From an uncultured Prevotellaceae bacterium (lineage in GTDB: Bacteria; Bacteroidota; Bacteroidia; Bacteroidales; Bacteroidaceae), in assembly GCA_945865175.1 (NCBI GenBank), contig CAMBDA010000015.1, forward strand, positions 3,082 through 67,081: a stretch of 64,000 bases of DNA, read 5' to 3'. The stretch's first letter is position 1. Each line of letters begins with the position of its first letter. Both the position numbers and the translations under genes were made by a program. A model generated the notes under the pieces. That model was not told the DNA's origin, ran no database searches, and saw only the letters and a program-made list of their open reading frames with translations. Shown here piece by piece: positions 18,613-29,981 of this stretch.

Positions 18613-18618
18613 CATCGT

Positions 18619-18692
18619 GTTTTTCATGGTATTAGATTTTTTTTAAGGTTTACAAAAAGATTGGTTGTCGTGATGACAACCTTCTTTTTTTT
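18619..18692 (+). ncRNA. Candidate small RNA of ~70-80 nt (promoter to terminator, no plausible ORF)
   Basis: Bounded by the promoter at 18582-18612 and the hairpin/T8 at 18663-18692. The only ORF inside is 6 codons. Confidence 0.3.
18663..18692. terminator. Bidirectional-looking intrinsic terminator
   Basis: GGTTGTC-GTGAT-GACAACC. An A-run sits upstream and TTCT8 downstream. Confidence 0.65.
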
Positions 18693-18790
18693 ATGTAAAC
18701 GGGAAAAATACGCTGGAATCTTATGGGAATGTAAGGGAGATACAGCTCCGCCTCCACTGCGCGGTGCTGTTGCAGTTAGGGCTTCAAAAT

Positions 18791-23282: not shown

Positions 23283-24056
23283 TTACTTGATGTGCTCGCG
23301 GATGCGGGAAAGATAGGCGCCCAGTGCCTCCTCGTCGCGATTGTCGATGATTTGGATGAGTTCCTTCAGCTCGGCCCGGATATCCTCCACATGCGACTTG
23401 GTGCGCGGATTGAAGAGGATTTCCCTCAACAGCGTGTCATCCTCCGAGAGTACGCCCCTGGCTATCCTGAGGTGGCGCTTGAAAGTGGTGCCCGGCGCGT
23501 CCTGATGCTTCATCACCGCGCTGAACACGAAGGTGCTCACGAAAGGCACGGACAGGGAATAGGCCATGGCCTCGTCGTGCTCGTCAAAGGTGTACTCATG
23601 CACATTGAGCCCCAGCCGCTTGTAGAGGTCGAGGAAAAAGATGCGGCCCATATAGTCGCCCTCGTTGATGACAATGGCGTTCTCCGTACTCAGCTGGCCC
23701 AGATTGGCAAAGGTAGGTCCGAACATCGGGTGGGTGCTCACATAGCGCAGCCCTGTGTGCTCGTAAAAGTCCTTGAACCCCGTCTTCACCGAACTGATAT
23801 CGCTGATGATACATTCCTGGGGCAGATGGGGAATCACCTGCTCAAATACCGAAAGGGTATACTTCAGCGTCACGGCGTTGATGACCAGCTCGGGCTTGAA
23901 GTCTTCAATCTCCTGCATCGAGGTGAAACGCTGGGTATTGTAGAGGAAACGCATCCGCTTGGGATCTATCTCATACACGGCACAGTCGTGTTGGAAGGAG
24001 AGCACGTCTGTGAAAAAGATGCCCATCTTGCCGGCACCCAGAATAAGTATGCGCAT
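23283..24056 (-). CDS. tyrA: Prephenate dehydrogenase
   Basis: 257 aa. N-terminal Rossmann motif ILILGAGKMG. Last gene of the aromatic operon. Confidence 0.85.
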   Translation of the reverse strand: MRILILGAGKMGIFFTDVLSFQHDCAVYEIDPKRMRFLYNTQRFTSMQEIEDFKPELVINAVTLKYTLSVFEQVIPHLPQECIISDISSVKTGFKDFYEHTGLRYVSTHPMFGPTFANLGQLSTENAIVINEGDYMGRIFFLDLYKRLGLNVHEYTFDEHDEAMAYSLSVPFVSTFVFSAVMKHQDAPGTTFKRHLRIARGVLSEDDTLLREILFNPRTKSHVEDIRAELKELIQIIDNRDEEALGAYLSRIREHIK

Positions 24057-24079: not shown

Positions 24080-25147
24080 TTACTTGTTGATAATCTCCAT
24101 CTGCTGGCGCACGCTCTCCTCATGGATGAACTCATAGATGCGACGCACAAAGTCGGGGTTCATGCCACACAGGCTGCCCTGGGCGCAACGCTTGTCCAGA
24201 ATCTCGGCATAGCGCTGGGTCTGCACCACGCCCATGTTGTGTTCCTTCTTGTACTTTGCAATCTCGCGGCTCACGCGCATTCGTTTGGTAAGGAGGTCGA
24301 GCAGCTGGTCGTCCATCACGTCAATCTGCTTGCGCAGGCTGCTGAGCGATTCGGTGAGTTCGATATTGTCGCGGATGACCAGACGGTCCAGAATGAAGTC
24401 GAGCACATCGGGGGTCACCTGCTGCTTGGCATCGCTCCATGCGCAATCGGGGTTGCAATGGCTCTCCACGATGAGGCCTTCGAATCCCATGTCCATGGCC
24501 TGCTGGCAGAGGGGTGCGATGAGGTCGCGCCGTCCACCTATATGACTGGGGTCGCAGATGATGGGCAGATTGGGATAGCGACGGTGCAGTTCGATAGGAA
24601 TATGCCAGAGAGGCACGTTGCGATAGAGTTTCTGGTCCACGCTGCTGAAACCGCGGTGAATAGCGCCCAGCCGCTTGATGCCAGCCCCATAGATGCGCTG
24701 CAGGGCACCAATCCACAACTCAATGTCGGGGTTCACTGGGTTCTTCACCAGCACCGGCACATCCACTCCCTTGAGGCTGTCGGCCAGTTCCTGCATGGCA
24801 AAGGGATTGGCCGTGGTGCGGGCACCCACCCACAACAGGTCCACGCCAGCTCCCAGGGCAGCCTCCACATGTTTGGGCGTAGCCACCTCGGTGGTTATGA
24901 GCATGCCCAGTTCCTGCTTCACACGCTGCAGCCATGGCAGGGCCGTTTCGCCGTGGCCCTCAAAGCCTCCGGGCTTGGTGCGGGGCTTCCACACTCCCGC
25001 ACGGAATATCTTCACCCCCTTGGCAGCCAACTGGCGTGCCGTGTCCATCACCTGCTCTTCCGTCTCGGCACTGCAGGGACCTGCAATCACCAACGGACGT
25101 TTCTCATCCAGGCCATTGAGGCCCAGTTTCTTCAGTTCAAAATCCAT
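24080..25147 (-). CDS. Bifunctional 3-deoxy-7-phosphoheptulonate (DAHP) synthase / chorismate mutase type II
   Basis: Start trimmed to MDFELKKLGL. DAHP synthase (KDO8P-like class) N-terminal ~260 aa plus a C-terminal CM_2 domain (LRKQIDVMDDQLLDLLTKRMRVSREIAKYK). Confidence 0.85.
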   Translation of the reverse strand: MDFELKKLGLNGLDEKRPLVIAGPCSAETEEQVMDTARQLAAKGVKIFRAGVWKPRTKPGGFEGHGETALPWLQRVKQELGMLITTEVATPKHVEAALGAGVDLLWVGARTTANPFAMQELADSLKGVDVPVLVKNPVNPDIELWIGALQRIYGAGIKRLGAIHRGFSSVDQKLYRNVPLWHIPIELHRRYPNLPIICDPSHIGGRRDLIAPLCQQAMDMGFEGLIVESHCNPDCAWSDAKQQVTPDVLDFILDRLVIRDNIELTESLSSLRKQIDVMDDQLLDLLTKRMRVSREIAKYKKEHNMGVVQTQRYAEILDKRCAQGSLCGMNPDFVRRIYEFIHEESVRQQMEIINK

Positions 25148-25199: not shown

Positions 25200-26384
25200 T
25201 CACCCAAAGACCTTGCGAATCCTCTCCAGCGCCTCCTCCATCTTTTCGTCCTTGGCACAGAGACTGATGCGCACATAGCGGCTGCCTCCGCTGCCGAAGA
25301 TGAATCCCGGCGTGATGAACACCCTGGCTTCGTGGAGCACGCGTTCGGTAAGCTGCTCCACATCGGCATACGTCTCGGGGATGCGTCCCCACAGGAACAT
25401 GCCCACCTGGTCCTGGTCATAGACGCAGCCCAGCGCATCCATGATTTGCTCTGCCAACTTCCTACGACGGGCATAGGTGGCCACATTGGCCTGGGCATGC
25501 CACTGGTCATCGTTGGCATAGGCCTCGGCCGCAGCCAGTTGCATGGCCCTGAACGTACCGCTGTCGATATTGCTCTTCACCTTCAGTATCCAGCCCACAA
25601 ACGCAGCGTTGGTGGCCAGCATGCCCACACGCCATCCCGGCATGTTATGACTCTTGGACATGGAATTGAGCTCTATGCAACAGTCCTTGGCTCCGGGCAC
25701 CTGCAGGATGCTCAGCTTCTCACCCTTGTTGAGGATAAAGCTGTAGGGGTTGTCGTTAACCACCACCAGTCCATGCCGACGGGCCAGACCCACCAGCTGC
25801 TCATAGGTGTGCCTTCGTGCGGGCGCTCCGGTAGGCATGTGGGGATAGTTGGTCCACAAGAGTTTCACACGCGAGAGGTCCATCCGTTCGATAGCCTCAA
25901 AGTCGGGCTGCCAACCGTTCTCGGGCTTCAGGTCGTAATATCTCACCTTGGCCCCCAGCAGGGTACTCAGGCTGGTGTAGGTGGGATAGCCGGGGTTGGG
26001 CACCAGCACTTCATCGCCCGGATTCACAAAGGCCAGCGTGATGTGAAGGATGCCTTCCTTGGAGCCGATAAGGGGCTGTATCTCTCCCGTAGGGTCAAGC
26101 GTCACGCCATACCATCGGTCATAGAATGCAGCCATGGCCTGCCTCAGTTCCGGAATGCCCACCGTAGGCTGGTAGCCATGGCTAGTGGGCTTCATGGCCT
26201 CACGGCAGAGCGTTTCCACAGTCTGCGGGCTGGGTGGCATGTCGGGGCTTCCGATGGCCAGGCTGATGATGTCCATGCCCTGGGCGTTGAGGCGTGCCAC
26301 CTCCTTTCCCTTGCGGCTGAAATAGTATTCATTGACCGAGGCCAGACGCTCGGCCGGACGTATCTCAAATGCTTTGTTTTCCAT
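25200..26384 (-). CDS. Class I/II aminotransferase (probable aromatic/prephenate aminotransferase)
   Basis: 394 aa. PLP-lysine context SMSKSHNMPGWR. Lies inside the phe/tyr operon. Confidence 0.8.
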   Translation of the reverse strand: MENKAFEIRPAERLASVNEYYFSRKGKEVARLNAQGMDIISLAIGSPDMPPSPQTVETLCREAMKPTSHGYQPTVGIPELRQAMAAFYDRWYGVTLDPTGEIQPLIGSKEGILHITLAFVNPGDEVLVPNPGYPTYTSLSTLLGAKVRYYDLKPENGWQPDFEAIERMDLSRVKLLWTNYPHMPTGAPARRHTYEQLVGLARRHGLVVVNDNPYSFILNKGEKLSILQVPGAKDCCIELNSMSKSHNMPGWRVGMLATNAAFVGWILKVKSNIDSGTFRAMQLAAAEAYANDDQWHAQANVATYARRRKLAEQIMDALGCVYDQDQVGMFLWGRIPETYADVEQLTERVLHEARVFITPGFIFGSGGSRYVRISLCAKDEKMEEALERIRKVFG

Positions 26385-27207
26385 TGACGTATTCTCCTAG
26401 TAGTTTTAATTCTTGTGTGAGCGGTGCGATGGCGTTTACGGCCTGTTGGTAATGGGTATGGCTGGTAAAGCACACATCGGTGTAGAACATATATTGCCAT
26501 TCCTTCCCGATGATGGGAAGCGACTGTATTTTGGTAAGATTGAGCTTGTAGAACGACAGGATGCTCAGTATGGCACTCAGGCTTCCCTCCTCGTGGGGAA
26601 GGGTGAACACCAGGCTGGCCTTGTTGGTGGTGCACACATCACGCATCATACTGGCCCTCTGGCTGCTACACAGCACCAGGAAGCGGGTGAAATTGTGCTT
26701 GTTGGTCTCGATGCCCTCCTGCAGCACCTTCATGCCATATATCTGGGCTGCATCGCGATGGCAGATGGCGGCGTGTCCATGAAGCTGACGGCGGCTGATG
26801 TCGGCTGCCGCACCGGCAGTATCGGCCACTTCCACCACCTTCAGCATGCCGTGGCGGGCCAGGAACTCGCGGCATTGCATCAGCGCCACGGGGTGTGAGT
26901 TCACCTCCTCTATGTCGGCCCAATAGTCATCGGGCAGGCACATGATGCTGTGGCTGATGCGCAACTTATGCTCCCCCACGATGGTGAGTCCACTCTCGCG
27001 CAGCAGCTCATAGTTGTGGAGCAGGCTGCCGGCAATGGTGTTCTCGATGGCCACCATGGCCACCACTGTATCATCGGCCTCCACAGCTGCAAACACTTCC
27101 TCGAAGGTGTCGCAACAGATGAGTTCCACGTCCTCTCCTTCAAAGTAGCGGTGGGCGGCAATGTCGTGAAAACTGCCCTTGATGCCCTGTATCGCAACGC
27201 GTATCAT
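26365..27207 (-). CDS. pheA: Prephenate dehydratase
   Basis: 280 aa. PDT domain (IAIQGIKGSF-type start, ENTIAGS) plus a C-terminal ACT domain. Overlaps the aminotransferase start by 20 nt. Confidence 0.85.
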   Translation of the reverse strand: MIRVAIQGIKGSFHDIAAHRYFEGEDVELICCDTFEEVFAAVEADDTVVAMVAIENTIAGSLLHNYELLRESGLTIVGEHKLRISHSIMCLPDDYWADIEEVNSHPVALMQCREFLARHGMLKVVEVADTAGAAADISRRQLHGHAAICHRDAAQIYGMKVLQEGIETNKHNFTRFLVLCSSQRASMMRDVCTTNKASLVFTLPHEEGSLSAILSILSFYKLNLTKIQSLPIIGKEWQYMFYTDVCFTSHTHYQQAVNAIAPLTQELKLLGEYVNGKQSI

Positions 27208-27278
27208 GTTTCTTTCCCTTTTCTTTTCTCTACTTTATTATATTGAATGTATTCTCTCTGCTCTGTCCTTTTTCACAA

Positions 27279-27308
27279 GAAAAAATCCCGCTTCGTGTGG
27301 AAGCGGGA
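27279..27308 (-). terminator. Attenuator terminator in the pheA leader
   Basis: Minus-strand UCCCGCUUC-CACAC-GAAGCGGGA followed by U6, ~70 nt before the pheA ATG. Confidence 0.6.
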
Positions 27309-27363
27309 CCTTATGCCTTGTTCTAAGTATGTTCTTTTTCTGTTCCTTTCATGTACACAACGA

Positions 27364-27371
27364 CCCGCTTC
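27364..27371 (-). promoter_or_regulatory. Candidate anti-terminator segment (GAAGCGGG), a duplicate of the terminator 3' arm
   Basis: Lies 4 nt after the leader-peptide stop. It can pair with CCCGCUUC of the terminator 5' arm. Confidence 0.5.
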
Positions 27372-27374
27372 ACT

Positions 27375-27437
27375 TCATTTGCTAAAGTAAAAGTAATAAT
27401 AAAAGCCGTTAAAATAAGTACCTGTCAGGTGCATCAT
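27375..27437 (-). CDS. Aromatic-amino-acid leader peptide MMHLTGTYFNGFYYYFYFSK
   Basis: 20-codon ORF absent from the track. 9 of the last 13 codons are Tyr or Phe. An A-rich 5' UTR and a promoter box lie upstream. Confidence 0.6.
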   Translation of the reverse strand: MMHLTGTYFNGFYYYFYFSK

Positions 27438-27475
27438 ATTATTCTGTTTTTATTGTTTATTGTAACATTTTGATG

Positions 27476-27483
27476 CAAAATTA
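27476..27483 (-). promoter_or_regulatory. -7 promoter box for the leader-pheA operon
   Basis: Minus-strand TAATTTTG, 38 nt upstream of the leader ATG. Confidence 0.5.
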
Positions 27484-27538
27484 GCGCTTTTTCTGAAAAC
27501 AGCAAAGGATTTTCCCATTTTTTTATTAAAAAATATCC

Positions 27539-27610
27539 CTACTTGTTTTTTCCGCCCATAAGCCAGTTCCAGACAATGACCAGAAACAGGGCCCACAACA
27601 ACAGTTCCAT
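27539..27610 (-). CDS. 23-aa hydrophobic peptide MELLLWALFLVIVWNWLMGGKNK (tentative)
   Basis: Absent from the track. GGAGG lies 6 nt upstream of the ATG. Sits 38 nt downstream of the TPR gene. Mostly G/C-ending codons. Confidence 0.35.
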   Translation of the reverse strand: MELLLWALFLVIVWNWLMGGKNK

Positions 27611-27648
27611 CTACGCCTCCGTTTTTTATTGAAAAGGATTATCCCTGC

Positions 27649-27849
27649 CTATGCCTTGAACGCTCCGCTGAGGCCCGCCAACAAATCCGGATCCATGCGT
27701 GCAGCCTGCTGCAGGTCGGCCAAGGCACCCTCATGGTCACCCACCATCATGCGCAAGCGTCCACGTTCCTTCAGCAGCTGCGCTGTGGGATTGTTTGCAA
27801 TCTCCTTGTCCAGGGCCTGAATAGCCACGTTGATTATCTCCTTGTCCAT
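27649..27849 (-). CDS. Small tetratricopeptide-repeat-like protein (66 aa)
   Basis: MDKEIINVAIQALDKEIANNPTAQLLKERGRLRMMVGDHEGALADLQQAARMDP fits one to two TPR helices. Confidence 0.6.
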   Translation of the reverse strand: MDKEIINVAIQALDKEIANNPTAQLLKERGRLRMMVGDHEGALADLQQAARMDPDLLAGLSGAFKA

Positions 27850-27888
27850 ATTCTGATATTTTTGACAGTTTCTATATCCTTCGATTGT

Positions 27889-29160
27889 TTACGCCTCCAC
27901 CCGGGCCGTAAAGCCCAACGCGGCCAGGGCCTCCACCAGCTTTTGCCCGTCCGGCTGGCCGCCTTCCACAAAGGCCGTGCCCGAGGCCAGGTCCACCTCA
28001 GCCTTCTCCACACCCTCCACAGACTCCAGGGCCTTGCGGGCGTTGGCGGCACAATGGTTGCAGTTCATGCCCTCCACACGGAGCACGGTGCGGGCATGGC
28101 AAGGAGCATGATGATGGGCATGCAGGCGACCCCTCAGACGGTTCACCACCAGCGCGTTGAGCAGCAGCAACAACAGCACGCCTGCAGCTGCCACATGCCA
28201 CCACGAAGCGCCTCCTTCCATGCAGCAGCCCACCGTCTGCAGCCTCCCGTCAAACCAGACACGGGGCAGCAGCCAGTCCATAGCCAAGGCAAAGGCCACC
28301 GACCCCGTGACGATAGCCGCCAGATAGGTCCACAGCGTGCGCTTGCCCATCACCTTGCCGATGACCAGCATGCTGGCTACATTGCAGGCCGGACCGGCCA
28401 TCAGCAACACCAGCGCGGCTCCCGGTGTAATGCCCTTCATCATCAGCGCCACGGCGATGGGGATGCTGCCTGTGGCACACAGATACATGGGAATGCTGAA
28501 CAACAGCACAAACAGGATGCTCAGAAGTGTGTTGTCCCGAAAGGCATCGAACAGGCTCTCGGGCACCAGAGCGGTGATGAGACCGGCCACCAGCAGCCCC
28601 ACTACCAGCCATTTGCCGATGTCCTCCATCATCTCTACAAAGGCAAACCGCAAAGCCTCCTCCAGCCTTCGGCCGATAGAAGAGTCTGCAACAGGAACCT
28701 CCGACCCGCAGCATGCAGCCTGGGGGCCACAGGCCTCCTCTGCCCCACAGCGGGCCACACGGGATGTCAGGAAGCCTCCCCACAGTGCTGTGAGCAAGGC
28801 CGCAAGCGGCCGCACCACGGCAAAGGGAAGCCCCATGAGGCTATAGGTGGCCATGATGCTGTCCACTCCCGTCTGGGGTGTGGCAATGAGAAACGACACC
28901 GTTGCGCTCCCCGACGCACCCTCGCGCCGAAGACTCATAGCAGTGGGGATGACCCCGCACGAGCACAGGGGAAGCGGCACACCCAGCAAGGCTGCCATCA
29001 CCACGCTGCGCATACCATCGGCCGACAGATAGCGGGCAAAGAACTGGCTGGGGACAAAGGCATGCAGGATTCCCGCCAGCAGGAAACCCAGCAGAAGGAA
29101 AGGCGACATCTCCAAGAACAGCGATGCCGTGTCCTGTGCCACAGACAAAATGTAATCCAT
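27889..29160 (-). CDS. Permease (DUF318/SO_0444-type putative Cu/Zn efflux transporter) with a C-terminal heavy-metal-associated domain
   Basis: Start trimmed to MDYILSVAQD. Multi-TM protein with internal Cys clusters. C-terminal HMA fold has GMNCNHC. Confidence 0.8.
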   Translation of the reverse strand: MDYILSVAQDTASLFLEMSPFLLLGFLLAGILHAFVPSQFFARYLSADGMRSVVMAALLGVPLPLCSCGVIPTAMSLRREGASGSATVSFLIATPQTGVDSIMATYSLMGLPFAVVRPLAALLTALWGGFLTSRVARCGAEEACGPQAACCGSEVPVADSSIGRRLEEALRFAFVEMMEDIGKWLVVGLLVAGLITALVPESLFDAFRDNTLLSILFVLLFSIPMYLCATGSIPIAVALMMKGITPGAALVLLMAGPACNVASMLVIGKVMGKRTLWTYLAAIVTGSVAFALAMDWLLPRVWFDGRLQTVGCCMEGGASWWHVAAAGVLLLLLLNALVVNRLRGRLHAHHHAPCHARTVLRVEGMNCNHCAANARKALESVEGVEKAEVDLASGTAFVEGGQPDGQKLVEALAALGFTARVEA

Positions 29161-29193
29161 ATACACGTGTGAATGTTTTTTTGTTTTCGAATG

Positions 29194-29201
29194 CAAAATT
29201 A
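29194..29201 (-). promoter_or_regulatory. -7 promoter box for the efflux-permease operon
   Basis: Minus-strand TAATTTTG, 33 nt upstream of the ATG at 29160. Confidence 0.5.
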
Positions 29202-29255
29202 CAGTTTTTTTTGTGCAATGGCGTTGCAAAATTTGGATTATTTCGCAAAAGGCCC

Positions 29256-29263
29256 TAACTTTG
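29256..29263 (+). promoter_or_regulatory. -7 promoter box for mtnN-luxS
   Basis: TAACTTTG, only 7 nt upstream of the mtnN ATG. Confidence 0.45.
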
Positions 29264-29270
29264 CACATCA

Positions 29271-29981
29271 ATGAACAAGACTATAGCAATCCTTACTGCC
29301 ATGTCGGTAGAACATAGGCAGATTCTGGCCATGCTCTCGGATGTCCGGGAGGAACAGCACGGCCCCTACACCTACAGCATCGGCCTGTTGGGCCCCAACC
29401 GCATCGTGCTGCTCCAATGCGGCATAGGCAAGGTGAACGCCACCGCTGGCGTGGTGGACCTCATCCTCCACTACCGGCCCCAATGTGTGGTGAGCACAGG
29501 TGTGGCCGGGGGCATAGACAGCCATCTGGAAGTGATGGACGTGGTGGTGGGCACCCACACCTGCCACCATGATGTATGGTGTGGCGATGGTTACGAACCC
29601 GGACAGGTGCAAGGCCTGCCCGCTCGCTTTGAGGGCGACCCCGTCCTGCTCCGCAAGGCCACCGCCCTGCAGGCCGATGTGCGCATTGTGCCCGGCCTCA
29701 TCCTCACCGGTGACCGTTTCATCACCAGCCACAGCGAACAGCAGAGCCTCAAGCAGGCCTATCCCGACGCGCTGGCCGTGGACATGGAAAGCGCAGCCAT
29801 CGCACAGGCATGCTACCTCTATGGCCTGCCCTTCGTGAGCATTCGCATCATCAGCGACACACCGGGAGCCGAGGGCCACTTTCAGCAGTACCTCAATTTC
29901 TGGCAGACCATGGCCGACAGGAGTTTCAGCGTGACACGTGCCTTCCTTTCCTCCCTACTGACCCAGTCCCACCACTGTTGA
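29271..29981 (+). CDS. mtnN: 5'-methylthioadenosine/S-adenosylhomocysteine nucleosidase
   Basis: 236 aa. IAILTAMSVE, GIGKVNA, VDMESAAIAQ. Confidence 0.85.
   Translation: MNKTIAILTAMSVEHRQILAMLSDVREEQHGPYTYSIGLLGPNRIVLLQCGIGKVNATAGVVDLILHYRPQCVVSTGVAGGIDSHLEVMDVVVGTHTCHHDVWCGDGYEPGQVQGLPARFEGDPVLLRKATALQADVRIVPGLILTGDRFITSHSEQQSLKQAYPDALAVDMESAAIAQACYLYGLPFVSIRIISDTPGAEGHFQQYLNFWQTMADRSFSVTRAFLSSLLTQSHHC

Follow-up and report, generated by a model that had tools for sequence, protein, structure and literature searches.

The window analysed here is the whole 64,000-nucleotide (nt) stretch of contig CAMBDA010000015.1 from an uncultured Prevotellaceae bacterium, and on its minus strand lies an aromatic amino-acid operon headed by pheA, preceded by a leader region that we interpret as a probable ribosome-mediated transcription attenuator. 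All features of the leader and of the operon are on that strand. The first gene that the leader would regulate, pheA, encodes a prephenate dehydratase with an ACT domain (26365-27207; Pfam PF00800, E = 1.5e-56) and is followed by a class I/II aminotransferase gene that overlaps the pheA stop (25200-26384; PF00155, Aminotran_1_2). The gene order around the aminotransferase is identical in L081-L084, four of the related loci that we examined and refer to by L numbers. Next comes a fusion of DAHP synthase and chorismate mutase (DAHPS/CM) of 355 amino acids (24080-25147; PF00793 and PF01817, DAHP_synth_1+CM_2), whose start, the ATG at 25147, was picked to match the length of its relatives (353-357 amino acids), and then a tyrA-like prephenate dehydrogenase gene (23283-24056; PF02153, PDH_N, E = 1.4e-09). 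The Pfam assignments confirm the operon composition of pheA, aminotransferase, DAHPS/CM and tyrA that had been proposed in a first-pass annotation of this DNA, which was also the origin of the attenuation idea.

Promoters of Bacteroidota are typically composed of a TTTG at -33 and a TAnnTTTG at -7. Direct reading upstream of pheA identified a -33-like TTTG at 27503-27506, located 19 nt upstream of the -7 box TAATTTTG at 27476-27483, which has the form TAnnTTTG; the transcription start site would lie a few nt past this box, at about 27469-27472. The box is separated by 38 nt from the ATG of an open reading frame (ORF) of 20 codons plus stop (27375-27437), which is visible in an ORF listing and by direct reading and is not called by standard pipelines. 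Its nucleotides are ATGATGCACCTGACAGGTACTTATTTTAACGGCTTTTATTATTACTTTTACTTTAGCAAATGA, to be read as the codons ATG ATG CAC CTG ACA GGT ACT TAT TTT AAC GGC TTT TAT TAT TAC TTT TAC TTT AGC AAA TGA, and its peptide is MMHLTGTYFNGFYYYFYFSK. Phe or Tyr (F/Y) is encoded by nine of the 13 final codons (four TTT, three TAT and two TAC). The main regulatory run, TTT TAT TAT TAC TTT TAC TTT (F Y Y Y F Y F), occupies 27384-27404, and two additional regulatory codons, TAT TTT, are found at 27411-27416. The position of this ORF, its distance from the -7 box and its count of Tyr and Phe codons had all been given at first pass, and direct reading confirmed them. A strong F/Y run in a short ORF starting with ATG occurs once in the 64-kb window, in this leader; a search of the rest of the window for another F/Y leader found none. 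Since the leader is unique in the window and F/Y leaders recur upstream of pheA in about 145 other loci, it is beyond what chance would provide.

Between the leader ORF and pheA the octamer GAAGCGGG is present twice, at 27364-27371 and at 27287-27294. The first copy begins 3 nt past the leader stop, which corrects an earlier spacing of 4 nt, and the second copy was correctly recognised from the outset as the 3′ arm of a terminator. The first copy and its extension UCGUUGUGU form segment 2, the 5′ arm of a predicted antiterminator (27355-27371), which pairs with segment 3 (27300-27316). Segment 3 consists of the core CCCGCUUC at 27300-27307, in DNA letters CCCGCTTC, together with GCAUAAGGU upstream, and is a shared arm whose partner can be either segment 2 or segment 4. 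Segment 4 is the second octamer copy; with segment 3 it forms the predicted intrinsic terminator, a hairpin of 13 base pairs (bp) at 27282-27312 with the loop CACAC and a folding energy of -18.5 kcal/mol, in which a single A separates GAAGCGGG from a U6 tract at 27280-27285. A consensus scan of 26900-28000 returned this hairpin as the sole terminator-like site on the minus strand. An attenuated transcript would end at the U6 tract and would be about 190 nt in length, and 72 nt lie between the terminator end and the pheA ATG at 27207. Segments 2 and 3 are separated by an A-rich spacer of about 55 nt, and their duplex, with the extension included, has an energy of -18.4 to -25.4 kcal/mol. In minimum free energy (MFE) folds the final F/Y codons also contain a segment 1, UUUUACUUUA (27383-27392), which is the 5′ arm of a 1:2 hairpin; the 3′ arm of this hairpin, UGAAGUGAAG (27368-27377), contains the UGA stop and shares 4 nt with segment 2. 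A mutated version of the segment 2 octamer GAAGCGGG, namely GAAGCCCG, exists as a design only.

Conservation of the element was examined in a close set of 80 loci with PheA identities of 70-93%, obtained by a PheA protein scan with one genome per GTDB species and derived from Paraprevotella and from uncultured rumen and gut Bacteroidaceae/Prevotellaceae. An ORF with an F/Y run is located upstream of pheA in 74 of these 80 loci, and thus in 75 of 81 when the window is counted, with the consensus ..(F/Y)(F/Y)YFYF(S/G).. in the leader peptide. All 75 leaders are accompanied by a terminator hairpin, with energies ranging from -13.8 to -24.6 kcal/mol and a T-rich stretch behind it, defined as at least 5 T within 8 nt after the hairpin. 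Comparison of the upstream regions of relatives had been suggested as a check on the original proposal, and the presence of the F/Y ORF and the terminator in 75 of 81 loci, with pairing that covaries, bears the proposal out. The remaining six loci look like secondary losses of the attenuator. In L063, L064, L065 and L079 both leader and terminator are missing and a TAnnTTTG promoter stands immediately before pheA, about 110 nt upstream; in L028 and L047, also without leader or terminator, pheA adjoins an upstream coding region.

The end of the leader ORF occurs in two forms, which differ by a 1-nt indel just before the UGA (columns 80-100 of the alignment A1 described below, corresponding to 27364-27380 of the window). 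The short form ends in ...SK* with its stop 3 nt before segment 2. In the long form, which makes up roughly a third of the leaders, translation would read through segment 2 as ..SNEVKRE.., with a stop up to about 30 nt later. The nucleotides of segment 2 (GAAGUGAAGCGGGA) are identical in the short and the long forms and are therefore conserved whether translated or not.

The two alternative helices were assessed in alignment A1, in which 75 sequences were aligned by MAFFT and three helices were marked. In the terminator (segments 3:4) 91% of the alignment cells are paired, compared to 37-56% in slid controls, and compensatory changes are found in eight of the 13 pairs, in 75 cells, a result matched by none of 500 shuffles. 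In the 8-bp core of the antiterminator (segments 2:3) 90.8% of the cells are paired, compared to 36-59% for slid partners, with compensatory changes at four pairs in 27 cells, which again was matched by none of 500 shuffles; one position, for example, is A-U in 39 sequences and G-C in 19, and another is G-C in 66 and A-U in four. Most informative are the loci in which segment 3 tracks segment 2 and segment 4 is left to wobble. L013 and L017 have GAAACGGG as segment 2 and CCCGTTTC as segment 3, and their segment 4, which is GAAGCGGG or GGAGCGGG, pairs by G.U; the corresponding sequences in L060, L062 and L077 are AGAGCGAG for segment 2 and TCTCGCTC for segment 3. The antiterminator of L036 has been re-registered as GCUGAGCG with CGCUCAGC: at L036:2830-2989 segment 2 has become GAAGCUGAGCG, a perfect 8-bp match to CGCUCAGC, and the target is the 3′ half of the terminator 5′ arm plus the loop instead of the usual CCCGCUUC. 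In L012, L033, L043 and L050 a deletion in the core is compensated by a longer helix, GGGAYUCUG with CAGAAAUCCC. The possibility that a single arm has two pairing options, as first proposed, is thus present in the window and conserved with compensatory base changes across many lineages.

A duplex test that is independent of column-by-column pairing gave the same picture in the close set, where the 2:3 duplexes of cognate segments averaged -20.3 kcal/mol against -18.05 kcal/mol for swapped segments and none of 5000 permutations was as good. RNAalifold applied to the full alignment recovered the terminator and no alternative helix. An outer helix of AACGGCUU with GGGUCGUU, which appears in the MFE fold, was dropped as a conserved feature, with 68% of its cells paired and poor covariation.

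The element is also found well outside the close set. Four PheA homologues of 61-66% identity, retrieved with their contigs, all have it, with a TAnnTTTG about 20 nt before the ATG; among them are one that clusters with Phocaeicola and one that clusters with Coprobacter. A further 80 metagenomic loci, with 42-50% identity to a distant representative, were obtained with a profile built on distant representatives of PheA. Among the 75 of these having enough upstream sequence, about 70 contain an ORF with a run of F/Y, in some cases with W, and these likewise possess a terminator, whose usual pattern is UCCYG...CRGGA-U. By co-membership in 90%-identity clusters, which was the only source of taxonomy for the metagenomic loci and makes the genus labels approximate, some of the distant loci are placed near Barnesiella, Alistipes, Muribaculum, Paludibacteraceae, Chitinophaga and Saprospiraceae. 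The distribution of the leader would on this basis span at least three classes of Bacteroidota. When the 40 nt after the F/Y run were paired with the terminator arm in 59 distinct distant leaders, cognate combinations gave -18.1 kcal/mol, swapped combinations -13.3 kcal/mol and shuffled ones -8.0 kcal/mol, and none of 5000 permutations was as good. The core of the pairing differs by lineage (CGGG/CCCG, CAGG/CCUG, GGGC/GCCC) while the pairing is kept, and therefore amounts to large-scale compensatory evolution. In six lineages (L083, L112, L130, L137, L138 and L146) two leader-terminator units stand in tandem before pheA, as at L083:1200-1500, where the peptides are MMNTFSFTYFYFYFYFKRK and then MKTFQRFYFYYFYYFMST; the tandem lineages cluster with Coprobacter, Paludibacteraceae, Saprospiraceae and Chitinophaga.

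The signals expected of a translated leader recur across these loci. Of 144 leaders, 138 have a TAnnTTTG box in the 80 nt that precede the ATG, the median distance being 25.5 nt, compared to a background rate of 19 in 2445 windows of 80 nt, and examples among the relatives have TTTG or CTTG at the matching spacing upstream of the -7 box. Positions -14 to -2 before the leader ATG are 50-74% A and poor in G, and no Shine-Dalgarno sequence was detected in the 14 nt before the leader ATGs. An A-rich start region lacking a Shine-Dalgarno sequence is what one expects for translation initiation in Bacteroidota.

The coding content of the leaders bears on which amino acids are sensed. Before a near-invariant TAC-TTT-TAC-TTT the aligned codons exchange F for Y (F 49 and Y 17, Y 47 and F 25, Y 36 and F 33 at three positions), synonymous variation between TTT and TTC and between TAT and TAC is seen at the aligned F/Y positions, and other amino acids are rare there. 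Among the 138 distinct candidate peptides from all loci, 136 have at least two F and at least two Y, with medians of five F and five Y; the two exceptions are stray ORFs beside a genuine leader in L082 and L119. This pattern points to selection on codon identity, for both Phe and Tyr, and not on a particular peptide. In principle, the attenuator could be real and respond to only one of the two amino acids, Phe or Tyr, the other codon being tolerated as TTT and TAT are one base apart and a U-rich segment 1 is kept. The near-invariance of the final TAC TTT TAC TTT at the nucleotide level could reflect RNA pairing, and the free exchange of F and Y elsewhere is what would be expected if only an aromatic residue or a U-rich codon counted. 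However, leaders that sensed a single amino acid would be expected to drift towards one codon type, whereas both types are retained in 136 of 138 peptides, at medians of five each, and the operon carries enzymes of both the Phe-specific and the Tyr-specific branch in addition to shared steps. Leaders with mixed codons are moreover well established in E. coli, namely those of thr (Thr, Ile) and ilvGMEDA (Ile, Leu, Val). We consider single sensing unlikely, and the strongest of the alternatives.

Our preferred reading, to which we assign a probability of roughly 0.85, is that the element is a ribosome-mediated transcription attenuator that would tie the expression of pheA, the aminotransferase, DAHPS/CM and tyrA to the supply of charged tRNA-Phe and tRNA-Tyr. 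The layout, the covariation and the F/Y codons are all consistent with attenuation sensing both amino acids, which was the central suggestion of the first-pass annotation. Transcription would start a few nt past TAATTTTG, and the 20-codon leader would be translated during its synthesis. If either Phe-tRNA or Tyr-tRNA were scarce, the ribosome would stall in the Y-Y-Y-F-Y-F run and leave segment 2 (GAAGCGGG and its extension) free; segment 3 (CCCGCUUC), emerging about 55 nt later, would pair with it, so that no terminator would form and transcription would read through into pheA. If both tRNAs were charged, the ribosome would reach the UGA 3 nt before segment 2 and cover it, or, in many relatives, would instead read straight across segment 2. 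Segment 3 would then join segment 4, and the hairpin with its U6 tract would free the transcript of about 190 nt. As a stall at an F codon or at a Y codon would have the same effect, the leader is expected to act as an OR gate whose inputs are Phe and Tyr, the operon's two end products.

The geometry of this model was examined with a ribosome mask in which the mRNA is covered to 14 nt from the first A-site base, a footprint size that is assumed. With the mask at codons 13-18 (Y Y Y F Y F) segment 2 is free, and the antiterminator is the MFE structure even with segment 4 present. A ribosome at the UGA covers segment 2 and segment 3 is unpaired before segment 4 is made; since segment 3 is still unpaired when segment 4 appears, the terminator is predicted to form. 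With the assumed footprint of about 14 nt, a stall thus frees the antiterminator arm and a ribosome at the stop codon masks it. Comparing the energies of the two alternative folds had been part of the original proposal, and the comparison came out accordingly, with the antiterminator favoured by a stall (-27.8 kcal/mol against -27.6 kcal/mol) and the terminator by a ribosome at the stop codon.

Several observations weigh against this reading. The two energies just given for the stalled ribosome with the full transcript are nearly equal. The 1:2 hairpin, which would act as the anti-antiterminator, is weak, with an energy of -6.7 kcal/mol. In the 75 sequences its arms are 95.5% paired, nearly all of the changes being one-sided exchanges between U-A and U-G, and in the distant loci the energy of the hairpin, -6.5 kcal/mol, is no better than the -5.9 +/- 2.4 kcal/mol expected from base composition. 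In an equilibrium fold of the transcript up to segment 3 in which no ribosome is present, segments 2 and 3 are already paired, and for this reason the outcome in the case of no translation would depend on the kinetic persistence of the earlier 1:2 structure. Segments 2 and 3 stand further apart than in the E. coli paradigms, with 55 nt of A-rich sequence between them. In relatives with the long form, the ORF ends about 30 nt beyond segment 2, and a ribosome halted at its stop codon would leave segment 2 uncovered. The element is absent from six of the 80 close loci and is to that extent dispensable. The first-pass annotation had further argued that the genome avoids the TTT and TAT codons used in the leader, and this claim is unsupported, as TTT is used 39 times against 46 for TTC, and TAT 35 times against 17 for TAC, in a small sample of six neighbouring genes with a G+C content at third codon positions of 0.735. 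Leader translation, ribosome stalling, its timing relative to RNA polymerase, premature 3′ ends and a response to amino acids are steps that we infer from the sequence.

The weakness of the 1:2 helix, which is typical of ribosome-mediated systems, together with the fact that a choice between terminator and antiterminator would suit many attenuation mechanisms, could also be taken to mean that the leader RNA is switched by a protein, by uncharged tRNA in a T-box-like manner or by a metabolite, and that the short ORF is incidental. What makes this explanation quite improbable is that what is kept across classes is the ORF with its start codon, promoter-proximal position and F/Y content, and not the flanking peptide. 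In addition, no T-box or riboswitch was found among the Rfam matches at E <= 10, and a conserved ligand or protein site would find no room in the A-rich spacer between segments 2 and 3, which is unconserved. That the hairpin is simply the terminator of the upstream unit (the permease gene, a TPR-like ORF and a small ORF), with the F/Y ORF as a functional hydrophobic peptide or a chance ORF, is very improbable, for although the upstream genes share the strand and lack an obvious terminator themselves and the peptide is strongly hydrophobic and aromatic, a promoter motif separates the upstream genes from the ORF in 138 of 144 loci, the element stays with pheA despite varied upstream neighbours (RecQ/TPR, aminotransferase, inositol-phosphate synthase), segment 2 covaries with the terminator arm in a way that a plain terminator does not explain, and the N- and C-termini of the peptide are unconserved, the 1-nt indel exchanging ...SK* for ...SNEVKRE... 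with the nucleotides unchanged.

The attenuator reading finds its closest parallel in the pheA leader of Flavobacterium psychrophilum reported by Guerin et al. in 2021 (PMC9723704), which encodes the 27-amino-acid peptide MNTNNTFYSNNSFYFYWNIGRDCYMVI, Trp included. This leader has a mapped transcription start site, a 5′ transcript segment that is separate and, in nutrient-poor medium, read-through, and the pheA operon is expressed most highly in minimal nutrient media (PMC9723704). Like the leader of the window, it belongs to the same phylum, precedes pheA and an aminotransferase gene directly, and contains an F/Y(/W) run (..SFYFYW..). Its terminator, AAUCCCG...CGGGAUUUUUUU, has the UCCCG..CGGGA-U form shared with the window, and the post-run segment GGGAUUGU is complementary to the terminator 5′ arm, as in the window; from the published sequence we computed a 2:3 pairing of GGGAUUGU with ACAAUCCC at -14.2 kcal/mol. 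The two leaders differ in class (Flavobacteriia and Bacteroidia), in the length and Trp content of the peptide and in their diverged nucleotides, and the F. psychrophilum leader has transcriptome support whereas the element of the window is known here by its sequence. Intermediates between the two cover several families and classes. Antiterminator pairing, covariation and a phylum-wide distribution were not shown in that report (PMC9723704). The statement made at first pass that attenuators in Bacteroidetes have only been predicted comparatively was thus overstated, given the mapped start site and the condition-dependent read-through of the F. psychrophilum leader (PMC9723704). In the literature searched we found no mutational or in vitro proof of such attenuation in Bacteroidota. 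Vitreschak et al. (2004, FEMS Microbiol Lett 234:357) reportedly mention candidate attenuators in Bacteroidetes/Chlorobi. Some of the long 5′ untranslated regions of B. thetaiotaomicron contain small ORFs that Ryan et al. (2020) mention in general terms as reminiscent of leader peptides.

With the E. coli pheL-pheA leader (RF01859) and the trp, his, thr, leu and ilv attenuators the element shares the logic of a leader ORF that carries regulatory codons, of antiterminator and terminator helices that exclude each other, and of a stop codon at which an unstalled ribosome masks segment 2 (PMC3082878, PMC1183508, and in part general knowledge). Unlike pheL-pheA, the leader of the window combines Phe and Tyr codons and precedes an operon with tyrA and DAHPS/CM, and unlike the E. 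coli attenuators it has no Shine-Dalgarno sequence, a Bacteroidota promoter, a 55-nt spacer between segments 2 and 3 and a weak 1:2 hairpin. A cmscan search at E <= 10 gave no match to the Rfam family Phe_leader (RF01859). The matches listed at that threshold were Thr_leader at 20.4 bits (gathering score 55), PyrR and a long non-coding RNA, all of them at chance level, and Thr_leader was rejected as the family of the element, its weak hit being to the terminator alone. The Bacteroid-trp motif (RF01692) was described by Weinberg et al. in 2010 (PMC2864571) as a predicted cis-regulatory leader of the Bacteroidetes trp operon and is called a ‘tryptophan peptide leader RNA’ in F. psychrophilum (PMC9723704). 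It resembles the leader of the window in being an aromatic amino-acid leader of Bacteroidetes and differs in preceding the trpE... operon and in having Trp codons, and neither 26800-28000, searched at E <= 10, nor the whole window, searched at gathering score, contained a match to it. The element thus shares the logic of the E. coli attenuators, lies outside their sequence families and groups with the Flavobacterium pheA leader.

It appears to us about evenly balanced whether the element represents an uncatalogued, ancient, phylum-wide RNA family of Bacteroidota, missing from Rfam and annotated in one flavobacterium, that would act as a two-input OR gate for Phe and Tyr and occurs in tandem in several lineages. 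The tandem duplication presumably sharpens the response. More remotely, the leader transcript of about 190 nt that is set free, or else the peptide, may also act in trans in the manner of rnTrpL/peTrpL in Sinorhizobium. The mechanism would require a ribosome close behind RNA polymerase and its conservation, if the reading is true, would therefore be evidence of tight coupling between transcription and translation, for which the leader could offer an experimental handle in Bacteroidota lacking Shine-Dalgarno sequences.

What is new in this work is the covariation of the antiterminator, the selection for both Phe and Tyr codons, the promoter context, the tandem duplications in some lineages and the distribution across at least three classes of Bacteroidota. 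No new principle is involved, as attenuation by leader peptides, multivalent leaders included, is textbook knowledge and the pheA case had already been annotated in Flavobacterium. The element is a comparatively validated aromatic amino-acid regulator for gut and rumen Bacteroidales, in which few cis-regulators of amino-acid operons have been characterised, and the roughly 145 sequences with a covarying antiterminator could serve as the basis for a new Rfam family and for better annotation. It is also a possible Phe/Tyr-responsive engineering part for Bacteroides.

Upstream of the promoter several further features were noted on the minus strand. At 27539-27610, in the interval from the TPR-like ORF to the pheA promoter, there is a 23-codon hydrophobic ORF, MELLLWALFLVIVWNWLMGGKNK, which was considered as a component of the system and dropped, being kept only in the closest relative, L001 (83% identity). 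The TPR-like ORF itself, of 66 amino acids at 27649-27849, contains the motif LKERGRLRM...GD..GA..DL..A...DP, has no Pfam assignment and probably encodes a protein with a single TPR-like repeat. It has 63 tblastn matches among the fetched loci, which are located upstream of pheA or its leader where examined. The upstream same-strand gene at 27889-29271 is predicted to encode a permease (ArsP_1) with a C-terminal heavy-metal-associated domain. On the strand opposite to this gene there is an ORF of 479 amino acids at 27733-29172 that has no Pfam hit and is probably spurious. The only Rfam match at gathering score in the window is to BTncRNA_FopS (RF04319), a Bacteroidetes family of paralogous small RNAs in Rfam, at 18617-18693 on the plus strand (68.8 bits against a gathering score of 56).

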